Notes: a model not told the origin generated them from the letters alone. A stretch of 7,708 nucleotides of DNA from a virus (IMGVR_UViG_2663763413_000006), one strand, 5' to 3'; positions 1 through 7,708 are shown, numbered from the stretch's first letter. Numbers and translations: made by a program.

Positions 1-296
1 GGGCCGGTAAAACCGGACTGATACAGCCACTTATCCGCAGCGTGCTGGACTCCGGGGGCTTTGCCGTGGTGTTCGACATGGGGGATGGCTACAAGTCCCT
101 GTGTGAGAACATGGGGGGCGTATATCTGGACGGTGAAACCCTGCGTTTTAACCCGTTTGCGAACATCACCGATATCGACCAGTCAGCGGAGCGTGTCCGT
201 GACCAGTTGTCAGTGATGGCCAGCCCCAACGGTAACCTGGATGAAGTGCATGAAGGTCTGCTGCTGCAGGCGGTCAGGGCCTCCTGGCTGGCCTGA
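1..296 (+). pseudogene. traC: Internal fragment of F-type conjugative transfer ATPase TraC (VirB4-family T4SS ATPase); 5' end outside window, stop TGA at 294-296
   Basis: Frame starting at nt 3 is open from the window edge and reads AGKTGLIQPLIRSVLDSGGFAVVFDMGDGYKSLCENMGGVYLDGETLRFNPFANITDIDQSAERVRDQLSVMASPNGNLDEVHEGLLLQAVRASWLA. The leading AGKT is the tail of a Walker A P-loop. The string matches my recollection of F-plasmid TraC, which continues past ...RASWLA; here a TGA follows immediately. Recognition is from memory, not a search. Confidence 0.7.
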
Positions 297-647
297 TCCT
301 TAACTGATCGGCATTACAGCCAGATGCTGGGCTTTATTGCCGAAAACTATGATCAGGCGCTGACCATCAACGATGTGGCTGAGCACGTCAAACTTAACGC
401 CAACTATGCAATGGGGATATTCCAGCGGGTCATGCAATTGACGATGAAACAGTACATTACCGCGATGCGCATCAACCACGTTCGCGCGTTACTGAGCGAT
501 ACCGATAAAAGTATTCTCGATATTGCCCTGACGGCAGGCTTTCGTTCGAGTAGCCGTTTTTACAGCACGTTCGGCAAATATGTCGGCATGTCGCCGCAAC
601 AATACCGCAAACTTAGCCAACAGCGCCGCCAGACGTTTCCCGGCTAA
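297..647 (+). pseudogene. melR: 3' portion of an AraC/XylS-family regulator (MelR-like C-terminal HTH DNA-binding domain); 5' part of the gene absent
   Basis: Same frame as the traC fragment. Translation SLTDRHYSQMLGFIAENYDQALTINDVAEHVKLNANYAMGIFQRVMQLTMKQYITAMRINHVRALLSDTDKSILDIALTAGFRSSSRFYSTFGKYVGMSPQQYRKLSQQRRQTFPG is a typical AraC-family tandem-HTH C-terminus. Position directly upstream of adiA matches the E. coli melR-adiA-adiY-adiC arrangement. Only about 115 codons are present, so the gene is 5'-truncated. Confidence 0.6.
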
Positions 648-842
648 AGACGATATCAGTATCAGCCAAAAAAATAGTTTAGCCGTCGATAATAAGCAGT
701 GAAAATAATTTAAAATAATCACATAACGTATTGTTTATAAAAATAAATATTTCAAAAATGTTTGTTTTTCACGCGCTTTACAGCCCGAAAAGGCCGGAAG
801 ATACTTGCCCGCAACGAAGATTCCTTCATAACCGGGTAAGCA
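648..842 (+). promoter_or_regulatory. AT-rich upstream control region of adiA (promoter not resolved to -35/-10)
   Basis: Strongly AT-rich intergenic tract (aaaaatagtttagcc...tttataaaaataaatatttcaaaaatg) between the regulator fragment and the adiA start at 843. No convincing sigma70 hexamer pair could be assigned by eye. Confidence 0.3.
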
Positions 843-3183
843 ATGATGAAAGTATTAATTGTTGAAAGCGAGTTTCTCCATCAAGACACCTGGGTCGGTA
901 ACGCCGTTGAGCGTCTGGCAGATGCTTTAAGCCAGCAAAATGTTACCGTGATTAAATCCACCTCCTTTGATGATGGTTTTGCCATTCTCTCTTCAAACGA
1001 AGCCATTGACTGCCTGATGTTCAGCTATCAAATGGAACATCCGGACGAACATCAAAACGTCAGACAATTGATCGGTAAGCTTCATGAGCGCCAACAAAAC
1101 GTGCCGGTCTTCCTGTTGGGCGATCGGGAAAAAGCCCTCGCCGCAATGGACCGGGATCTGCTGGAGCTTGTCGATGAATTCGCCTGGATTCTGGAAGATA
1201 CCGCCGACTTTATCGCCGGACGCGCCGTTGCCGCGATGACCCGCTACCGCCAGCAGCTATTGCCGCCACTGTTCAGCGCGCTGATGAAATATAGCGACAT
1301 CCATGAATATTCCTGGGCAGCGCCAGGCCACCAGGGCGGCGTTGGTTTTACCAAAACACCCGCCGGACGTTTCTACCATGACTATTATGGTGAAAATCTG
1401 TTCCGCACCGACATGGGTATCGAACGCACTTCCCTCGGTTCTTTGCTTGACCATACTGGCGCATTTGGCGAAAGCGAAAGATATGCCGCACGCGTATTTG
1501 GTGCCGATCGCTCCTGGTCGGTAGTCGTCGGTACTTCCGGCTCTAACCGCACCATCATGCAGGCTTGCATGACCGATAACGAGATAGTAGGTCGGTGACC
1601 GTAACTGCCAGAAATCCATCGAAAAAGCCATAAAGCCAACAAACAAGAAACCAGGCTAACAGGCGCGAAACCGGTCTACATGGTGCCAAGCCGCAACCGC
1701 TACGGCATTATCGGGCCAATCTATCCGCAGGAAATGCAACCTGAAACCTTGCAGAAGAAAATCAATGAAAGCCCGCTGACCAAAGACAAAGCCGGGCAAA
1801 AACCGTCTTACTGCGTGGTGACCAACTGCACCTATGACGGCGTGTGTTATAACGCTAAAGAAGCACAGGATCTGCTGGAAAAAACCTCCGATCGTCTGCA
1901 CTCTGACGAAGCACTGGTACGGCTATGAACGTTCCAACCCGATCCATGCCGATCACGAGCCATGCGACAGCTCTATGCCGATCAACCCGATCTATGCCGA
2001 TCACTATGCCATGCGCGGCGAACCTGGCGATCACAACGGTCCTACCGTTTTCGCCACCCACTCCACCCACAAACTGCTGAATGCGCTGTCACAGGCCTCT
2101 TATATTCATGTACGTGAAGGTCGTGGGGCGATTAACTTCTCCCGCTTCAACCAGGCCTACATGATGCATGCCACCACCTCCCCGCTGTATGCCATCTGCG
2201 CATCCAACGACGTGGCGGTGTCGATGATGGACGGCAACAGCGGCCTGTCACTGACCCAGGAAGTGATCGACGAAGCGGTTGATTTCCGTCAGGCGATGGC
2301 GCGGCTATATAAAGAGTTCACCGCTGACGGTAGCTGGTTCTTCAAACCGTGGAACAAAGAAGTCGTCACCGACCCACAAACCGGCAAAACCTATGACTTT
2401 GCTGACGCACCAACCAAACTGCTGACCACCGTTCAGGACTGCTGGGTCATGCATCCGGGCGAAAGCTGGCACGGCTTCAAAGATATTCCGGATAACTGGA
2501 GTATGCTCGACCCGATTAAAGTCAGCATCCTTGCTCCGGGAATGGGTGAAGATGGTGAACTGGAAGAAACCGGTGTTCCGGCGGCGCTGGTCACAGCCTG
2601 GCTTGGTCGCCACGGCATTGTGCCTACCCGTACCACTGACTTCCAGATTATGTTCCTGTTCTCTATGGGCGTGACCCGTGGGAAATGGGGGACTCTGGTT
2701 AACACCCTTTGCTCCTTCAAACGCCACTATGATGCCAACACACCGCTGGCGCAGGTGATGCCGGAACTTGTTGAACAATATCCTGACACTTACGCGAACA
2801 TGGGGATTCACGATCTGGGTGACACCATGTTTGCCTGGCTGAAAGAAAACAACCCTGGCGCACGGTTGAATGAAGCCTATTCCGGCCTACCGGTGGCGGA
2901 AATCACCCCGCGTGAAGCGTACAACGCGATTGTCGACAACAATGTCGAACTGGTATCCATTGAAAATCTGCCAGGACGTATCGCGGCAAACTCAGTTATC
3001 CCGTATCCGCCAGGAATCCCGATGCTGCTGTCTGGTGAAAACTTCGGCGATAAAAACAGTCCGCAAGTAAGTTATTTACGCTCGCTGCAATCCTGGGACC
3101 ATCATTTCCCTGGATTTGAACACGAAACAGAAGGGACAGAAATTATTGACGGTATTTACCACGTTATGTGTGTGAAAGCGTAA
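843..3183 (+). pseudogene. adiA: Biodegradative (acid-inducible) arginine decarboxylase AdiA, reading frame broken into three ORFs (843-1598, 1680-1928, 1834-3183)
   Basis: N-terminus MMKVLIVESEFLHQDTWVGNAVERLADALSQQNVTVIKSTSF... and C-terminus ...GTEIIDGIYHVMCVKA match E. coli AdiA as I recall it. In-frame stops TGA 1596-1598 and TAA 1602-1604 lie in a scrambled segment 1581-1658, after which frame 0 resumes (TGAKPVYMVPSRNRYG). A +1 shift near 1911-1916 moves the native reading to frame 1 (WYGY...). A 48-bp in-frame insertion at about 1936-1983 is a diverged partial copy of the following sequence. Confidence 0.85.
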
Positions 3184-3199
3184 CCACTATTCCGCTGAA

Positions 3200-3226
3200 G
3201 GCGTAATTGTTAAATAACATTACGCC
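3200..3226. other. 27-nt near-perfect palindrome (hairpin-capable) immediately downstream of the adiA stop
   Basis: ggcgtaat tgttaaataac attacgcc: 8-bp perfect outer stem (3200-3207 with 3219-3226), a further 4 bp after one mismatch. No T-run follows, so it is not a canonical intrinsic terminator. Confidence 0.4.
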
Positions 3227-3300
3227 GCCTGGCTTGAGGCCTTTTAAGTATGGCAACGTTTTCATAAAAATTGCTGCAAACAAAAAATGTCATGCTTTTT

Positions 3301-3328
3301 GCGCGGTCCCACCCCGCGCTTTTTTTTG
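3301..3328 (+). terminator. Rho-independent terminator between adiA and adiY
   Basis: GC-rich stem gcgcgg (3301-3306) pairing with ccgcgc (3314-3319), 7-nt loop tcccacc, followed directly by a run of 8 T (3320-3327). Confidence 0.6.
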
Positions 3329-3518
3329 CCTGTTATTTATCCTTTTTTTAGCCTGTAAAAAAATATGTACATGAGAAATTACTATAAAAATTTGTAATAT
3401 TAGTAAAACTCGTTATTTTTATGCATGTTTATATTCATCATACAATTATATAACCATTTCCCGGTATCGCTTCGCTTTAGCGAGAACTGGTCTTTTATTC
3501 GCACTCAGGAGTACATGT

Positions 3519-4443
3519 ATGAGGATTTGCAGCGACCAACCTTGTATTGTTTTATTGACTGAAAAAGATGTCTGGATAAGGGTGAATGGGAAAGAACCTA
3601 TTAGCCTTAAAGCTAACCACATGGCGTTATTAAATTGTGAAAATAATATTATCGACGTCTCCTCTCTTAATAACACTTTGGTTGCTCATATTAGTCACGA
3701 CATCATCAAAGATTACCTCCGGTTTCTGAATAAAGATCTCTCGCAAATACCAGTATGGCAACGTAGCGCTACGCCCATCCTCACCCTTCCATGCCTGACG
3801 CCAGACGTCTTTCGCGTTGCCGCGCAGCATAGCATGATGCCCGCTGAAACTGAGTCAGAAAAGGAACGAACACGTGCATTATTATTCACTGTGCTATCCC
3901 GTTTTCTCGACAGTAAAAAATTCCTTTCACTAATGATGTATATGTTTCACTAATGATGTATATGTTACGTAATTGTGTAAGTGACAGCGTTTATCAAATT
4001 GTGTAAGTGACAGCGTTTATCAAATTATTGAAAGCGAAATCCACAAAGACTGGAATCTTAGTATGCCAGCAAGAGACTGGAATCTTAGTATGGTAGCCAG
4101 TTTGGAATCTTAGTATGGTAGCCAGTTGATGATGTCTCAGCCCAAGTCTGTTAAAGAAAAAGCTGAAAAGCGAAAACACCAGTTATAGCCAAATAATCAC
4201 CACCTGCCGCATGCGTTATGCCGTAAATGAATTAATGATGGACGGTAAAAATATTTAATAATGGACGGTAAAAATATCTCTCAGGTACGCTAAAAATATC
4301 TCACAGGTATCACAGTCCTGCGGCTACAACAGTACGTCGTACTTTATTTCTGTCCTTAAAGACTTATACGGTATGACGCCGCTGCATAAGGTATGACGCC
4401 GCTGCATTATGTTAGTCAGCACAGAGAACGCACTGTCGCCTGA
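3519..4443 (+). pseudogene. adiY: AraC-family activator AdiY, disrupted by multiple short tandem duplications and in-frame stops
   Basis: ORF 3519-3953 reads MRICSDQPCIVLLTEKDVWIRVNGKEPISLKANHMALLNCENNIIDVSSLNN..., matching recalled E. coli AdiY, then terminates early at TAA 3951-3953 inside a duplicated segment. Downstream sequence still encodes AdiY-like peptides in shifting frames (e.g. [56 protein letters not shown]) up to the native-looking stop TGA 4441-4443. Good RBS aggag 8 nt upstream of the ATG. Confidence 0.8.
3925..4409 (+). repeat. Cluster of short direct tandem duplications inside adiY
   Basis: Read directly: tttcactaatgatgtatatg x2 (3925-3944, 3945-3964); attgtgtaagtgacagcgtttatcaa x2 (3972-3997, 3998-4023); gactggaatcttagtatg(gtagccagtt) in three overlapping copies (4048-4065, 4075-4102, 4103-4127); atggacggtaaaaatat x2 (4238-4254, 4261-4277) with a third partial copy near 4291-4310; ggtatgacgccgctgcat x2 (4370-4387, 4390-4407). 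Confidence 0.85.
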
Positions 4444-4579
4444 TTTTTAACCTTAACGAAGAGCTATATTAATAACGGCATCAGCGATAACCCGGCCGAT
4501 AATAATTCAACTATCGAATGCAGGCGTATGATATGACGTAATTTATTGTCACGAAGCTCGCCTTCGCAGGAGTTTAATT

Positions 4580-5163
<584 letters not shown>

Positions 5164-5164
5164 T

Positions 5165-5242
<78 letters not shown>

Positions 5243-5251
5243 TTGCAGATA

Positions 5252-5641
5252 TTACTCTTTTTTCTCCGTATCTGCATCGGGTTCATCAGCAAATAGCTTG
5301 CCCTGCATCCGATCCAGTTCTTCTTTTCTTACCCGCTTAACCACGCTGTAGACCCACTGAAGCGAAACACCAAATTTGCGGGCCAGTTCGTGGTGGTTGC
5401 GTCCGTTAAACTCCCTGAAGATTTCCCGGTCGCGCTGACTGACCTTCCATACCATGCCCATCGGGAAATAAACGTTTTGCCCGCCCCAGACCTGCATCAT
5501 TCGGTTCGCGACGGCCTGACCAATCTGGTCGGCAACTTCGGGCTCAATATCAATAATCTCGCGAACGGTCTCAGAGGTATGCTGTGCCAGTTCCACCAGG
5601 AGTTCCGGCCCCTTACTTCGAAACTGATTCAGGTCGCTCAT
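5252..5641 (-). CDS. mor: Mor-like middle-operon transcriptional activator (Mu gp17 family)
   Basis: 129 aa. C-terminal region ...GGQNVYFPMGMVWKVSQRDREIFREFNGRNHHELARKFGVSLQWVYSVVKRVRK resembles the conserved Mor/C-family HTH region of phage Mu Mor as I recall it (...FNGRN..EL...YG......VY...RR.R). Start overlaps the upstream gemA-like gene by 29 nt. Confidence 0.7.
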   Translation of the reverse strand: MSDLNQFRSKGPELLVELAQHTSETVREIIDIEPEVADQIGQAVANRMMQVWGGQNVYFPMGMVWKVSQRDREIFREFNGRNHHELARKFGVSLQWVYSVVKRVRKEELDRMQGKLFADEPDADTEKKE

Positions 5642-6062
5642 GTTTGACTCCCGCAGCTCTGCGCTGCCACTTCTTCAGTTTCTCAATAACACTGCTTGCC
5701 TGTTCAGTACTGAGCCAGCGCAGGGCGCTGATGCCCGTTTCCCGCTTGATCCACCTCGCTAATGCATTTTCTGAACGGTCACGAACAATGCCGGCAGCAG
5801 CCATTTCAAGCCATAGCGCACGAATTTTCCTGGACTGCGGATGGTTATCAAGCGGTAAACCGGAGCTGGCTTTTCTGGCTGGTTTAACGCGAAAGCCTTT
5901 CTTTTTCATGGATTCCAGCACGCAGTTTAGTTGTGTGGTATCCATTCCTTTGGTTGAGGCTTTACCGGTCAGCCCCTGTAACATCTGGCGGTAGGTGTCT
6001 TCATCCATACCCAGTTCATTACGGGCAATATGGATAAGCTGTATCAGGCGTTTTTTCTGCAT
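5613..6062 (-). CDS. gemA: GemA-like protein (Mu gp16 / DUF1018 family)
   Basis: 149 aa, MQKKRLIQLIHIARNELGMDEDTYRQMLQGLTGKASTKGMDTTQLNCVLESMKKKGFR...KIRALWLEMAAAG... matches the GemA family pattern recalled from Mu-like prophage annotations. Lies immediately upstream of mor as in phage Mu. RBS ggag upstream of ATG at 6062. Confidence 0.65.
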   Translation of the reverse strand: MQKKRLIQLIHIARNELGMDEDTYRQMLQGLTGKASTKGMDTTQLNCVLESMKKKGFRVKPARKASSGLPLDNHPQSRKIRALWLEMAAAGIVRDRSENALARWIKRETGISALRWLSTEQASSVIEKLKKWQRRAAGVKHERPESVSK

Positions 6063-6063
6063 A

Positions 6064-6270
6064 TCATCTCCTTTTTTTCAGTCTGTCGGCAACAATGTCG
6101 GTTGCAGCTGGCAGGGTGACTGGCCAGAACAACATGACGGCGGTCATGTACAGGATGTAATGCGCGGTGTCGTAGTGCCTGCCATAGCCCAGGGAACGAT
6201 GAAGTCTTGCGCTGCATGATCCTGCGTACATATACCAGAAAAGAAAACAGACAATGGTTTCAGTAGTCAT
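6064..6270 (-). CDS. Small hydrophobic (putative membrane) protein, 68 aa, unknown function
   Basis: Internal start of the 6064-6426 ORF: ATG at 6270-6268 preceded by ggagg about 10 nt upstream. MTTETIVCFLFWYMYAGSCSARLHRSLGYGRHYDTAHYILYMTAVMLFWPVTLPAATDIVADRLKKRR has two hydrophobic segments. Start overlaps the stop of the upstream gene; the stop is 1 nt from the gemA start. Confidence 0.4.
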   Translation of the reverse strand: MTTETIVCFLFWYMYAGSCSARLHRSLGYGRHYDTAHYILYMTAVMLFWPVTLPAATDIVADRLKKRR

Positions 6271-6490
6271 TCTGAATACCTCCCCATTCGATATGAATAT
6301 TACGGGCAGCAATGACAGGGTCGTTATTCCACCATGCACCTGACATGTATTTTTCAACCTGTTCGCGTCCGGCAATAACACCAATTGTGATCCCCGGCCT
6401 GACGTTCTTAAAAAAGGCGCGGGCAAAAAGGTATCTGGCAGATATTCGGCAGGCTTTTAATTTCCGGCTTTTACCTGATAGCGTAATCAT
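6260..6490 (-). CDS. Hypothetical phage protein, 76 aa
   Basis: ORF with ATG overlapping the TGA of the upstream DUF2786-like gene (ATGA at 6487-6490, minus strand), consistent with translational coupling in a phage operon. No family recognised. Confidence 0.4.
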   Translation of the reverse strand: MITLSGKSRKLKACRISARYLFARAFFKNVRPGITIGVIAGREQVEKYMSGAWWNNDPVIAARNIHIEWGGIQNDY

Positions 6491-7170
6491 CTGGCCTCCA
6501 GTTTCTGTTGTTCCTGCCCACTGACCGGGCGGTGCAGTCTGACGTTCTGCCCTTCACGAAACCCCGCATAGCGCGAGGCGTCGCCATTGCGGCTTCTTCC
6601 CGGTTTACGCGCCCTGGTGGTTTGCGTCTGCGGGTATTTATGTTCCAGCCACTGCTGCATCAGTTCACGCTCATCATCGGTCAGGGCAAAGGACTGTATT
6701 TCACTGATAACGGCCAGCACCCAGCCTTCGGCAAACTGGTCTCCACGGCTGGTGCGGGTGGCGGTTTTTATTCTTTTGTTCTGTGCACTGATATACTGCT
6801 GACGCGCCTTTTTCAGCTGACGGGCCAGCACTTCCCAGGTGTATGCAGCCAGTGCCGCACGTTCCCGGTTGCCGTAGAACCCCACAGACGGATGCGTGCC
6901 GGGGTGAATGATGGAGTTAACACCAAATACCTCGCGGATGATGTTCATCAGGCCCAGCATGTAGCGCGGTGGACGGAGACTGCCTGTCGGCCAGTAGTGA
7001 CTGATGGTTTCATCAATATCACTCATAGCAATGTCGGAATGTGTGATGCCGTGAACATCCATCAGTTTACGGGCTCGGCGCAGTGCCAGAGCGGCCTCGT
7101 GCGGGTTGCCGGATGCGGCCAGCGCCAGCAACTTTTTCAGTTTCTCAATGTGTTTATTCTGGTCTGTCAT
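6487..7170 (-). CDS. DUF2786-like phage protein (227 aa from ATG 7170; the six-frame ORF extends to 7206)
   Basis: N-terminus MTDQNKHIEKLKKLLALAASGNPHEAALALRRARKLMDVHG resembles the DUF2786 signature (EKI.KLLALA.S.N..EA..A...A..LM) common in prophage early regions. The ATG at 7170 overlaps the TGA of the upstream gene (ATGA) and has ggag about 11 nt upstream, so I prefer it over the 7206 start. Confidence 0.55.
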   Translation of the reverse strand: MTDQNKHIEKLKKLLALAASGNPHEAALALRRARKLMDVHGITHSDIAMSDIDETISHYWPTGSLRPPRYMLGLMNIIREVFGVNSIIHPGTHPSVGFYGNRERAALAAYTWEVLARQLKKARQQYISAQNKRIKTATRTSRGDQFAEGWVLAVISEIQSFALTDDERELMQQWLEHKYPQTQTTRARKPGRSRNGDASRYAGFREGQNVRLHRPVSGQEQQKLEAR

Positions 7171-7382
7171 TGTTCTGTATCTCCGGTATTTTTCTGCCGT
7201 TTCCATGCCCGGACAGCGTCGGACAGCTCTTTCAGGCTGTATGCTGCTTTAAGCTTTTCCCATAACCACTGTGTTGTTATGTGCATCAGCAGGGCAGCCA
7301 GGGCTGCCCCCGCACTGAGGCATGTCGCCAGGCCAGTAAGAATCAGTGTCCATGCGGTGATTTCCCTGAGTATGTCAGCCAT
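7167..7382 (-). CDS. Small putative membrane protein, 71 aa, unknown function
   Basis: MADILREITAWTLILTGLATCLSAGAALAALLMHITTQWLWEKLKAAYSLKELSDAVRAWKRQKNTGDTEQ has one clear hydrophobic helix. RBS gggagg 8 nt upstream of the ATG; stop overlaps the start of the downstream gene. Confidence 0.4.
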   Translation of the reverse strand: MADILREITAWTLILTGLATCLSAGAALAALLMHITTQWLWEKLKAAYSLKELSDAVRAWKRQKNTGDTEQ

Positions 7383-7396
7383 TGAATGCCTCCCGG

Positions 7397-7693
7397 TTAC
7401 TCGTTCGTGTAAATCACGCCCAGTCGTGCAGCCAGACGTTCCAGTTTTTTCTGTTTGTGGAAGTCAATCAGCCGGTCCATCCCCTGAAGGCGCAGTTGCT
7501 CTGTCATGATTTCCACGTCTGCCAGCTCTGCCGCGAGGTCACTTTCGCTGCCCTGTCCGTTCAGGTTGCGGGCGGCACTGGCCGCCAGTTCAGCGGCCTC
7601 TTCTGCCAGTTTCAGGGCCTGTGCGTCCGGCCCGAAACGCTGCAGGGCCAGACGGTAGAGGGCGGTGCGGGTGAGTTCGGTGTTTCGTGTCAT
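7397..7693 (-). CDS. Small MazG-like all-alpha nucleotide pyrophosphohydrolase-type protein, 98 aa (motif-based call)
   Basis: Contains E31-x3-E35 (LAEEAAELAAS), then 20 residues later E56-x2-D59 (AAELADVEIM), matching the MazG/HisE-type metal-binding signature E-x3-E ... E-x2-D. RBS gaggg upstream of ATG at 7693. Inferred from motif only. Confidence 0.5.
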   Translation of the reverse strand: MTRNTELTRTALYRLALQRFGPDAQALKLAEEAAELAASAARNLNGQGSESDLAAELADVEIMTEQLRLQGMDRLIDFHKQKKLERLAARLGVIYTNE

Positions 7694-7708
7694 GCCGCGC
7701 CCTCAGTG

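Follow-up and report, generated by a model that had tools for sequence, protein, structure and literature searches.

Background

In Escherichia coli the genes for arginine-dependent acid resistance lie in the order melR, adiA, adiY and adiC, where melR encodes an AraC-family regulator, adiA the arginine decarboxylase, adiY an AraC-family activator and adiC the arginine/agmatine antiporter. IS4 is a 1426-bp element that leaves target duplications of 11-13 bp, and its targets at other sites include those in yicI (CAGCCAGGTCTG) and ygdR (CAGCCGGATGCTG). The BcepMu-type phages (genus Bcepmuvirus) include Escherichia phage PhiKM and a 37-kb BcepMu-like prophage that we found at many unrelated sites in 641 out of 5426 genomes of E. 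coli, the flanks including ycaL, hycE and genes for a TonB-dependent receptor, a LysR-family protein, an MFS transporter and an exonuclease. The copy in JJ1887 (ST131) is bounded by TG...CA ends that form a terminal inverted repeat and is flanked by a 6-bp GAAGAA target duplication, its far end reading TGATGCG... inward, and both this prophage and PhiKM carry annotated genes for a DDE transposase, an ExeA-family ATPase and Gam. In Hfr and F-prime fusions of F transfer DNA with the chromosome, a complete insertion sequence stands at the joint as the product of recombination between IS copies. False tandem duplications that arise through overlapping sequence at contig boundaries and through error-driven under-collapse are a documented class of assembly artefact (VGP preprint 10.1101/2020.05.22.110833, Box 1).

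Here we analysed a stretch of 7,708 nucleotides (the window), which is the complete NCBI whole-genome shotgun contig AOQJ01000101.1 (7708 bp) of assembly GCA_000397385.1, a public draft of E. coli. We argue that the window is probably an assembly artefact lying over two ordinary insertion events, one of IS4 and one of a Mu-like prophage, and that it holds no new biological arrangement.

Results and discussion

Organization of the window

The first-pass annotation had described a mosaic of three blocks with junctions at 285-300 and 5060-5100, and both the mosaic and these coordinates were borne out by our analysis, which identified the blocks as an F-type traC fragment, a melR'-adiA-adiY-adiC' segment and part of a Mu-like prophage. 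It had also stated that the blocks meet with no intervening mobile-element ends, and this proved to be wrong, as bases 294-316 are an IS4 terminus and the prophage ends exactly at base 5089. In none of 5426 complete E. coli genomes was at least 80% of the window found in one place, the exact strings of the two novel joints had no match in four scans of genome and metagenome collections, and a comparison of the window with Rfam gave no match.

The middle block (317-5088) is, outside its lesions, 100% identical to the chromosome of E. coli D8 and to more than 20 others. Its genes all lie on the plus strand and include the 3' part of melR (317-647, with Pfam HTH_AraC/HTH_18 on the ORF at 324-647), which is cut by the IS4 insertion, adiA (843-3183), which is interrupted at two of the artefact zones and reads as three ORFs, adiY (3519-4443), which measures 925 nt against 762 nt in the reference and is shortened to an ORF of 144 aa, and the 5' part of adiC (4580-5088), which stops at nt 503 (codon 168 of 445), the phage insertion point. 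Compared with the known acid resistance locus, the window keeps the gene order and shares 4127 identical nucleotides with D8 and related chromosomes, whereas its melR and adiC are cut by insertions and duplications, probably artefactual, disrupt its adiA and adiY.

The IS4 terminus in melR

Short-query BLAST and comparison with annotated 1426-bp elements identified bases 294-316 (plus strand; TGATCCTTAACTGATCGGCATTA) as the terminal 23 nt of the right end of IS4. Positions 293-323/325 gave matches of 100% or 97% identity at 5-19 places per genome, annotated as IS4 family transposase within the 1426-bp element, and 294-316 coincide with the last 23 nt of such copies (loci L011-L013). The remaining 1403 bp, and with them the transposase gene and the left end, are missing from the window, and what lies upstream of 293 is traC and not the interior of IS4. 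We also examined bases 294-316 as a noisy copy of traC or melR sequence and rejected this origin: four candidate neighbours, taken on both strands, aligned no better than shuffles except for one marginal value (P = 0.03), and a 40-nt BLAST query led to the IS4 end.

On its outer side the stub is followed by CAGCCAGATGCTG (317-329, plus strand), which comparison with E. coli 7CC identifies as the IS4 target in melR. In 7CC the IS4/melR joint is identical and CAGCCAGATGCTG is duplicated on either side of the element; the window holds a single copy, after the stub, of what would be a 12-13 bp target duplication. The reciprocal joint, in which the 5' part of melR meets the left end of IS4, is predicted to read ...TTTTATGTCAGCCAGATGCTG followed by TAATGCCAGTCAGTTAAGC. 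The 23 nt of the window are hence like any IS4 right end, joined to their melR target exactly as in 7CC, and differ from known copies in that the inner edge of the stub meets traC.

The traC fragment and its join to IS4

Bases 1-293 (plus strand) are an internal fragment (nt 1469-1761 of 2631) of the F-type conjugation gene traC. Over 160 IncF plasmids match it at 100% identity along its whole length, and at least 80% of the fragment is covered in 3516 plasmids; the traC annotation of the matching region was taken from plasmid pPA45B. Base 293 (C) is common to traC and IS4, and the boundary between the two is ambiguous at that position. An intact traC is expected to continue past the break as ...CTGGCTGGCCAAAGAGAACAGG.

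At the first junction a single join is probably unnatural, the one where traC meets the inward-facing side of the 23-nt stub. In a 40-nt search across this join no record covered the traC side, and the joint occurred in no record searched. The whole arrangement could in principle be a real molecule, produced either by an IncF-chromosome fusion via IS4 (Hfr-like or F-prime-like) with a deletion that left 23 nt of the element, or by illegitimate recombination between traC and IS4, the stutter tracts of the middle block then being due to error-prone repair. The authentic IS4-melR and phage-adiC joints speak for mobile-element activity at this locus in the isolate, and the core of the IS4 target is present in reverse complement (CTGGCTG) at the traC end, only 3 nt from the join, which could be a hint of a real IS4-related event. 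However, a second IS4 copy at the target-like CAGCCAGG in traC would give a joint displaced by 3 nt from the one in the window, and IS4 occupies this predicted site in 0 of 72,556 plasmid records. The likeness to Hfr and F-prime fusions extends to the meeting of F transfer-region and chromosomal DNA at a joint that contains IS sequence, but the window has only 23 nt of IS4 and a break in the middle of traC, and neither a complete shared IS nor another known recombination substrate is found at the joint. Fusions mediated by insertion sequences keep whole IS copies, whereas a stub of 23 nt fits the scale of an assembler's word size, and we know of no mechanism by which such a stub would form. 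Taking these observations together with the pattern of changes in the middle block described below, we regard a real molecule of this kind as very improbable, and the integrated F-like element that the first-pass annotation had suggested loses its footing at a joint that lacks a recombination substrate and recurs in no other record.

The prophage and its joint with adiC

Bases 5089-7708 (2620 nt) match both phage PhiKM and the prophage of JJ1887 at 100% identity. On the minus strand they encode a Mor-family transcription activator (5252-5641; PF08765), a GemA/gp16 family protein (5613-6062; PF06252) and other early-operon genes (6064-7693), namely two small ORFs, a DUF2786/DUF7168 protein (6487-7170) and ORFs of 71 and 98 aa. 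Mor and GemA are thus the members of the Mu-like gene set seen in the window, the transposase, ATPase and Gam genes falling outside it. The prophage terminus (5'-TGATTAGACTTGAGATAAATG...) and a non-coding end region occupy 5089-5251 (plus strand), as judged from seven insertions and from the JJ1887 inverted repeat; within this region GAGATA is repeated at 5100 and 5123 and ATGGGAAGA at 5132 and 5152, and these repeats are putative transposase-binding sites.

The second junction is an exact Mu-type joint, adiC extending to 5088 and the first base of the prophage (5'-TG) standing at 5089. The terminus is base-exact, as seven independent insertions share TGATTAGACTTGAG... from that base on and have unrelated flanks before it. 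Here the transposable phage named among the explanations of the first-pass annotation was the right one, and the later deletions invoked with it are superfluous for a clean end-to-target joint. The window contains one prophage end only. For the other, the reciprocal joint with adiC is predicted as the far end ...GGCGCATCA followed by CGTATTTGGCTGG or, with a 6-bp duplication, as ...GGCGCATCA abutting CGTATTTGGCTGGTTCTGG; the exact far-end string had no match in the part of the PhiKM record examined. The window shares with the BcepMu-type phages, besides its identity over 2620 nt, the 5'-TG terminus, the position of Mor and GemA at the close of an early operon read towards that terminus, and the arbitrary choice of host gene, while it differs from them in that 2.6 of 37 kb are on the contig and that the site at adiC codon 168 occurs in no other record searched.

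Just before the joint lies a noisy stretch of adiC (5064-5080, plus strand) with 3 extra nt and 3 T-to-G substitutions, whose colinearity with the continuation of adiC was established by local alignment, none of 2000 shuffles reaching its score. Such noise directly beside an otherwise perfect joint would be odd in an insertion that was fixed and well covered.

The joint may be real without being fixed. Molecules carrying it could be a minority, generated by replicative transposition after spontaneous induction or consisting of host DNA on packaged phage genomes, so that the assembler followed a single poor junction read while the resident prophage lay elsewhere, for instance next to ycaL, its position in ST131. 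One poor read would be expected to leave noise just where these 17 nt lie, the phage block is 100% identical to a prophage that adjoins ycaL in JJ1887, this phage is found in adiC in 0 of 5426 complete genomes, and the PhiKM record shows that host DNA adjacent to a terminus does get assembled into phage records. However, if most cells had an intact adiC, an assembler would as a rule continue through the gene and clip the rare branch, and comparable noise is seen within adiA and adiY at a distance from any joint, so that noise by itself is no sign of a minority molecule. We consider this account possible but rather unlikely.

Nature of the lesions

The lesions that the first-pass annotation had noticed in the middle block are real and are confined to 1583-1658, 1903-1981, 3925-4389 and 5064-5080. 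The first three, all on the plus strand, were resolved by jump alignment, complemented in the first two by a map of exact matches. Zone 1 (1583-1658) consists of an error-rich stretch followed by a re-used overlap of 20 nt, zone 2 (1903-1981) of an error-rich stretch and noisy re-used overlaps with 48 extra nt in total, and zone 3 (3925-4389) of a succession of colinear segments measuring 52, 69, 37, 152, 32 and 100 nt, which step back by 20, 26, 25, 25, 23, 22 or 20 nt of the reference at each restart and contain 0-4 single-base errors each. The lesions are therefore chains of read-sized colinear segments in which each segment begins again 20-26 nt back in the reference; they include no deletions and leave a net excess of +239 nt.

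All 8 unambiguous overlaps fall within 20-26 nt (P ~2e-5 under a null of lengths uniform on 0-26). The substitutions are equally far from random: a reference T was altered in 21 of the 34 (P ~5e-5) and T was created in 0 of 34, and the spectrum is strand-asymmetric, with 10 T>G against 1 A>C and 6 T>C against 0 A>G. A natural tandem duplication or localised hypermutation would show a strand-symmetric spectrum and copies that start out identical and vary in length, which is not what the window shows. Because 11 insertion events and 34 substitutions are clustered in ~0.6 kb, against zero mismatches in the remaining 4127 nt, and because the loss of T is strand-asymmetric, the pattern is a non-mutational one, which weighs against error-prone repair in a real molecule; the lesions are probably overlaps left uncollapsed, together with errors of base calling, and not mutations. 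We hold it extremely improbable that the contig is true to a molecule of the clinical E. coli, in which F transfer DNA had fused at the melR IS4 with loss of most of that element, the prophage had entered adiC 4.8 kb away, and template-switching and error-prone repair tied to transposable-phage replication had generated the stutters.

The uniform 20-26 nt of unmerged overlap imply a particular minimum-overlap or word-size behaviour of the assembly software. Simple abutment of non-overlapping reads was rejected as their source, since it predicts overlaps spread from 0 to k and occasional deletions, neither of which is seen. Colour-space (SOLiD) error propagation was likewise rejected for the bursts of substitutions, which follow no fixed base mapping. 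The window agrees with the false "homotype" duplications of draft assemblies in that copies stand head to tail at the seams of colinear pieces, one copy often carrying read errors, and in that chimeric breakpoints coincide with a repeat boundary, and differs from them in that the unit is 20-26 nt, on the scale of a word or minimum overlap and not of a read length, and in that several units follow in series inside one bacterial gene.

Origin of the contig

Very thin coverage, uncorrected errors and chimeric joins would also be explained if the contig came from a second E. coli strain contaminating the sample at a low level, or from sample cross-talk, the adi locus of the main strain then lying clean on another contig. 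The tiling by what look like single reads and the uncorrected errors fit a coverage of ~1-3x, and the contig is of small size and, as number 101, stands late in its assembly. We nevertheless think this unlikely, given that 4127 nt are error-free and that neither the phage block (2620 nt) nor the traC block (293 nt) has a single mismatch, which points to decent coverage over most of the contig. As for a cloned or engineered construct or the output of a sequence model, origins of the kind the first-pass annotation had listed, the abrupt joins of plasmid, chromosome and phage and the stutter repeats do bear a superficial likeness to construct scars or generated sequence. But the sequence was deposited as a whole-genome shotgun contig, its breakpoints lie base-exact on natural IS4 and phage termini, it has no vector, marker or linker, and over thousands of bases it matches specific natural lineages at 100% identity, so that we give such an origin practically no credence.

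Mis-assembly, also among the explanations first listed without a choice between them, best explains both the lesions and the join at traC. In the course of events that we propose, the contig would come from a short-read draft assembly of an E. coli isolate, and the real DNA of the isolate would include an IncF plasmid, an IS4 at its hot-spot target in melR and a prophage whose Mor-side end lies on adiC codon 168. The unique 4.8-kb stretch melR'-adiA-adiY-adiC' between these two repeats would have been assembled from thin or poor data, and at three zones adjacent pieces the size of reads, with overlaps of no more than 20-26 nt, would have been written in series instead of being merged, giving perfect or noisy tandem "stutter" duplications and leaving base-calling errors (the loss of T calls) uncorrected. 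At the boundary of the IS4 repeat the contig would have retained a word-sized stub of 23 nt, which a chimeric fragment, or a scaffolding or abutment step, may then have joined to the unrelated 293-nt piece of traC, a join that probably never existed in a cell.

Conclusions

The main value of these results is one of caution. The contig carries frameshifted adiA and adiY "pseudogenes" and a plasmid-chromosome "fusion", and a naive reading of them would suggest a hypermutational loss of arginine-dependent acid resistance or an Hfr-like event. Automated pipelines have already turned these features of AOQJ01000101.1 into unique protein entries, and in a search of 153 billion gene positions the broken AdiY and the AdiC-fusion proteins were known from this contig alone.

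What the contig tells about the biology of the isolate is not new in kind. The hot-spot target of IS4 is sharply defined and includes a site in melR, struck independently in two lineages. A BcepMu-like prophage that is widespread in E. coli inserted into adiC in at least some molecules of the isolate and, if that insertion is fixed, the arginine/agmatine antiporter would be abolished.

Source record and composition of the mosaic

The window is identical from first to last base to the NCBI WGS contig AOQJ01000101.1 (assembly GCA_000397385.1; 7708 bp), and an exact-protein look-up of two lesion-dependent open reading frames, an AdiC fusion (4580-5095) and a truncated AdiY (3519-3953), matched this one record only. 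The window is therefore one small contig, in full, from an E. coli draft assembly, and it is neither part of a finished genome nor a synthetic sequence.

The first-pass annotation had described a mosaic of three blocks with junctions at about 285-300 and 5060-5100, and both the mosaic and these coordinates were borne out, each block being matched to known traC, adi and phage sequences. The first block (1-293) represents nucleotides 1469-1761 of the 2631-nt traC gene and matches this internal segment in many IncF plasmids at 100% identity. The second (317-5088) is colinear with the melR(3')-adiA-adiY-adiC(5') region of E. coli D8 and of more than 20 further chromosomes. The third (5089-7708) matches both Escherichia phage PhiKM (Bcepmuvirus) and a prophage of the ST131 strain JJ1887 at 100% identity, and carries on its minus strand the genes for Mor, GemA and a DUF2786/DUF7168 protein together with small ORFs; the Mor and GemA frames overlap by 29 nt (5613-5641, minus strand), with the same annotation in PhiKM and JJ1887. 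At least 80% of the window was found in one place in none of 5426 complete E. coli genomes.

Lesions in the adi block

An exact-match map and a jump-alignment showed the adi block to equal D8 with zero mismatches over 4127 nt, a count that leaves out three zones (1583-1658 and 1903-1981 in adiA, 3925-4389 in adiY) and the noise beside the phage joint. The zones are chains of colinear segments, each of which begins again a short way back along the reference. The adiY restarts lie 20, 26, 25, 25, 23, 22 and 20 nt back and separate segments of 52, 69, 37, 152, 32 and 100 nt with 0-4 single-base errors each, while the first adiA site is a densely erroneous stretch of about 75 nt (about 15 differences) followed by a 20-nt restart and the second holds 48 extra nt. 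There are no deletions in the lesions, and the net excess is 239 nt. Random abutment of pieces predicts overlaps from zero upward and was rejected, all eight unambiguous overlaps falling within 20-26 nt (P about 2e-5).

Among the 34 substitutions, 21 affected a reference T (P about 5e-5; T makes up 28% of the zones) and none created a new T, with a marked strand asymmetry (T>G 10 against A>C 1; T>C 6 against A>G 0). This loss of T is unlike mutations fixed in double-stranded DNA and fits base-calling failure in reads of one strand. The lesions are best explained as uncollapsed short overlaps with uncorrected read errors, and as such they belong to the false 'homotype' duplications that the Vertebrate Genomes Project described at contig boundaries (10.1101/2020.05.22.110833, Box 1). 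They divide adiA among three ORFs and cut AdiY short, and through false frameshifts in 843-3183 and 3519-4443 a public protein collection now contains five separate gene products (251, 82, 402, 144 and 171 aa) that no other contig of the searched collection has. Natural disruption of the adi locus by insertion sequences does occur, as with IS1 inside adiY of E. coli CU532-9 (NZ_CP082776.1).

The joint between adiC and the prophage

The identical prophage end is present in 641 of the 5426 complete E. coli genomes, beside many different genes. In an alignment of seven independent copies, namely PhiKM and six chromosomes in which the flanks were ycaL, hycE, TonB-dependent receptor, LysR-family, N-acetyltransferase and exonuclease genes, the common sequence starts at TGATTAGACTTGAG (window 5089), and all copies differ leftward of it. 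The adiC sequence ends in GCCGTATT (nt 503, codon 168), phage base 1 comes immediately after it, and the next two bases, TG, are common to adiC and the phage. Since a random chimera would miss the terminal nucleotide, a molecule with the phage inserted in adiC must have been present in the sequenced DNA, and this junction is a genuine transposition joint. The 17-nt noise at 5064-5080 is colinear with adiC (its alignment score was reached by none of 2000 shuffles) and suggests that the joint was backed by few or poor reads. The phage::adiC molecule may have been either the lysogen's resident copy or a product of transposition in a minority of molecules, the latter being a variant of the same artefact conclusion.

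In JJ1887 the prophage measures 37,045 bp with TG...CA ends (2571-39615 of its locus) and lies between aroA and ycaL, a ycaL site common to many ST131-type genomes. It is flanked by the 6-bp target duplication GAAGAA, which overlaps the ycaL start codon region, and encodes a DDE transposase, an ExeA/MuB-like ATPase, Gam, GemA, Mor and a Gin-like recombinase. Its imperfect terminal inverted repeats have GATAAATG in common, which recurs at the far end at an equal offset from the terminus. Repeated motifs in the non-coding phage end of the window (5089-5251), with GAGATA at 5100 and 5123, GATAAATG at 5102 and ATGGGAAGA at 5132 and 5152, are candidate transposase-binding sites. In the PhiKM record (PQ738613, 'partial genome'), non-phage DNA (3625-4001) annotated as an 'Fe2+ ABC transporter permease' fragment lies directly left of the phage terminus, after the tail-fibre gene; this suggests a permuted assembly including host DNA joined to the phage end, and the far terminus was not found within the part of it examined.

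The IS4 end in melR and the traC join

Between traC and melR lie 23 nt (294-316, TGATCCTTAACTGATCGGCATTA), which aligned to the adjacent traC and melR no better than shuffled controls, so that a local copy was rejected. In a 40-nt search of E. coli genomes, window 293-323/325 had 5-19 matches per genome, at 100% or 97% identity. These matches lie at the right end of IS4, which is 1426 bp long and has an annotated IS4 family transposase. The earlier statement that the blocks abut with no intervening mobile-element ends consequently fails at both junctions, adiC meeting the phage terminal base exactly and the IS4 end having been missed.

The IS4 targets, CAGCCAGATGCTG in melR, CAGCCAGGTCTG in yicI and CAGCCGGATGCTG near ygdR, are each duplicated on both sides, and these copies (window 294-329; 1086-1111 and 2502-2537 in locus L011, and the same positions in L012 and L013) point to a very specific, sharply defined target, approximately CAGCCRGRTSYTG, and a duplication of 12-13 bp. 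In strain 7CC, IS4 occupies exactly the melR position of the window. Because identity between the adi region of 7CC and the window is no more than 99.07%, the two insertions at this site appear to be independent, and the shared position together with the target specificity indicates that melR is truncated at its start by a real IS4 insertion.

The traC side of the stub is most likely not natural. The sequence switches to mid-traC beyond only 23 nt of IS4, and when the 40 nt spanning the join were searched against E. coli genomes, no record covered this side; the joint string was not found in species-representative genomes or metagenome contigs, nor was IS4 found at the target-like traC site in any plasmid searched. 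De Bruijn and overlap assemblers leave repeat stubs of about word size at contig seams, at repeat boundaries. The sole support for a physically real plasmid-chromosome fusion is one heptamer that resembles the IS4 target and lies 3 nt away from the break in traC, and such a fusion would require an unexplained deletion that spared exactly a word-sized remnant of IS4. A 7-nt inverted repeat, CTGGCTG in traC (284-290) and CAGCCAG in melR (317-323), encloses GCC and the stub; it may have arisen by chance (a probability put very approximately at 5%) or reflect the target preference of IS4.

Origin of the mosaic

The most economical reading is an isolate in which IS4 sits in melR and adiC is joined to the end of a BcepMu-like prophage, with a stuttered assembly between them and a false attachment of traC. 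The unique 4.8 kb between IS4 and the prophage would have been assembled from locally thin or poor data, giving the stutter, and a 293-nt traC piece of the isolate's IncF plasmid would have been attached at the IS4 boundary, either via a chimeric fragment or when pieces were abutted. The whole contig may instead stem from a contaminant, which is again a variant of the artefact conclusion. Among the origins first proposed, mis-assembly and a transposable phage are thus relevant, the fusion lacks support, and an engineered or computer-generated sequence is excluded by the provenance and the base-exact natural termini. The components, F traC, IS4, the adi acid-resistance locus and a common BcepMu-like E. 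coli prophage, are all known; the mosaic most probably does not represent a real biological arrangement, and the apparent combination of its components is not a biological novelty.
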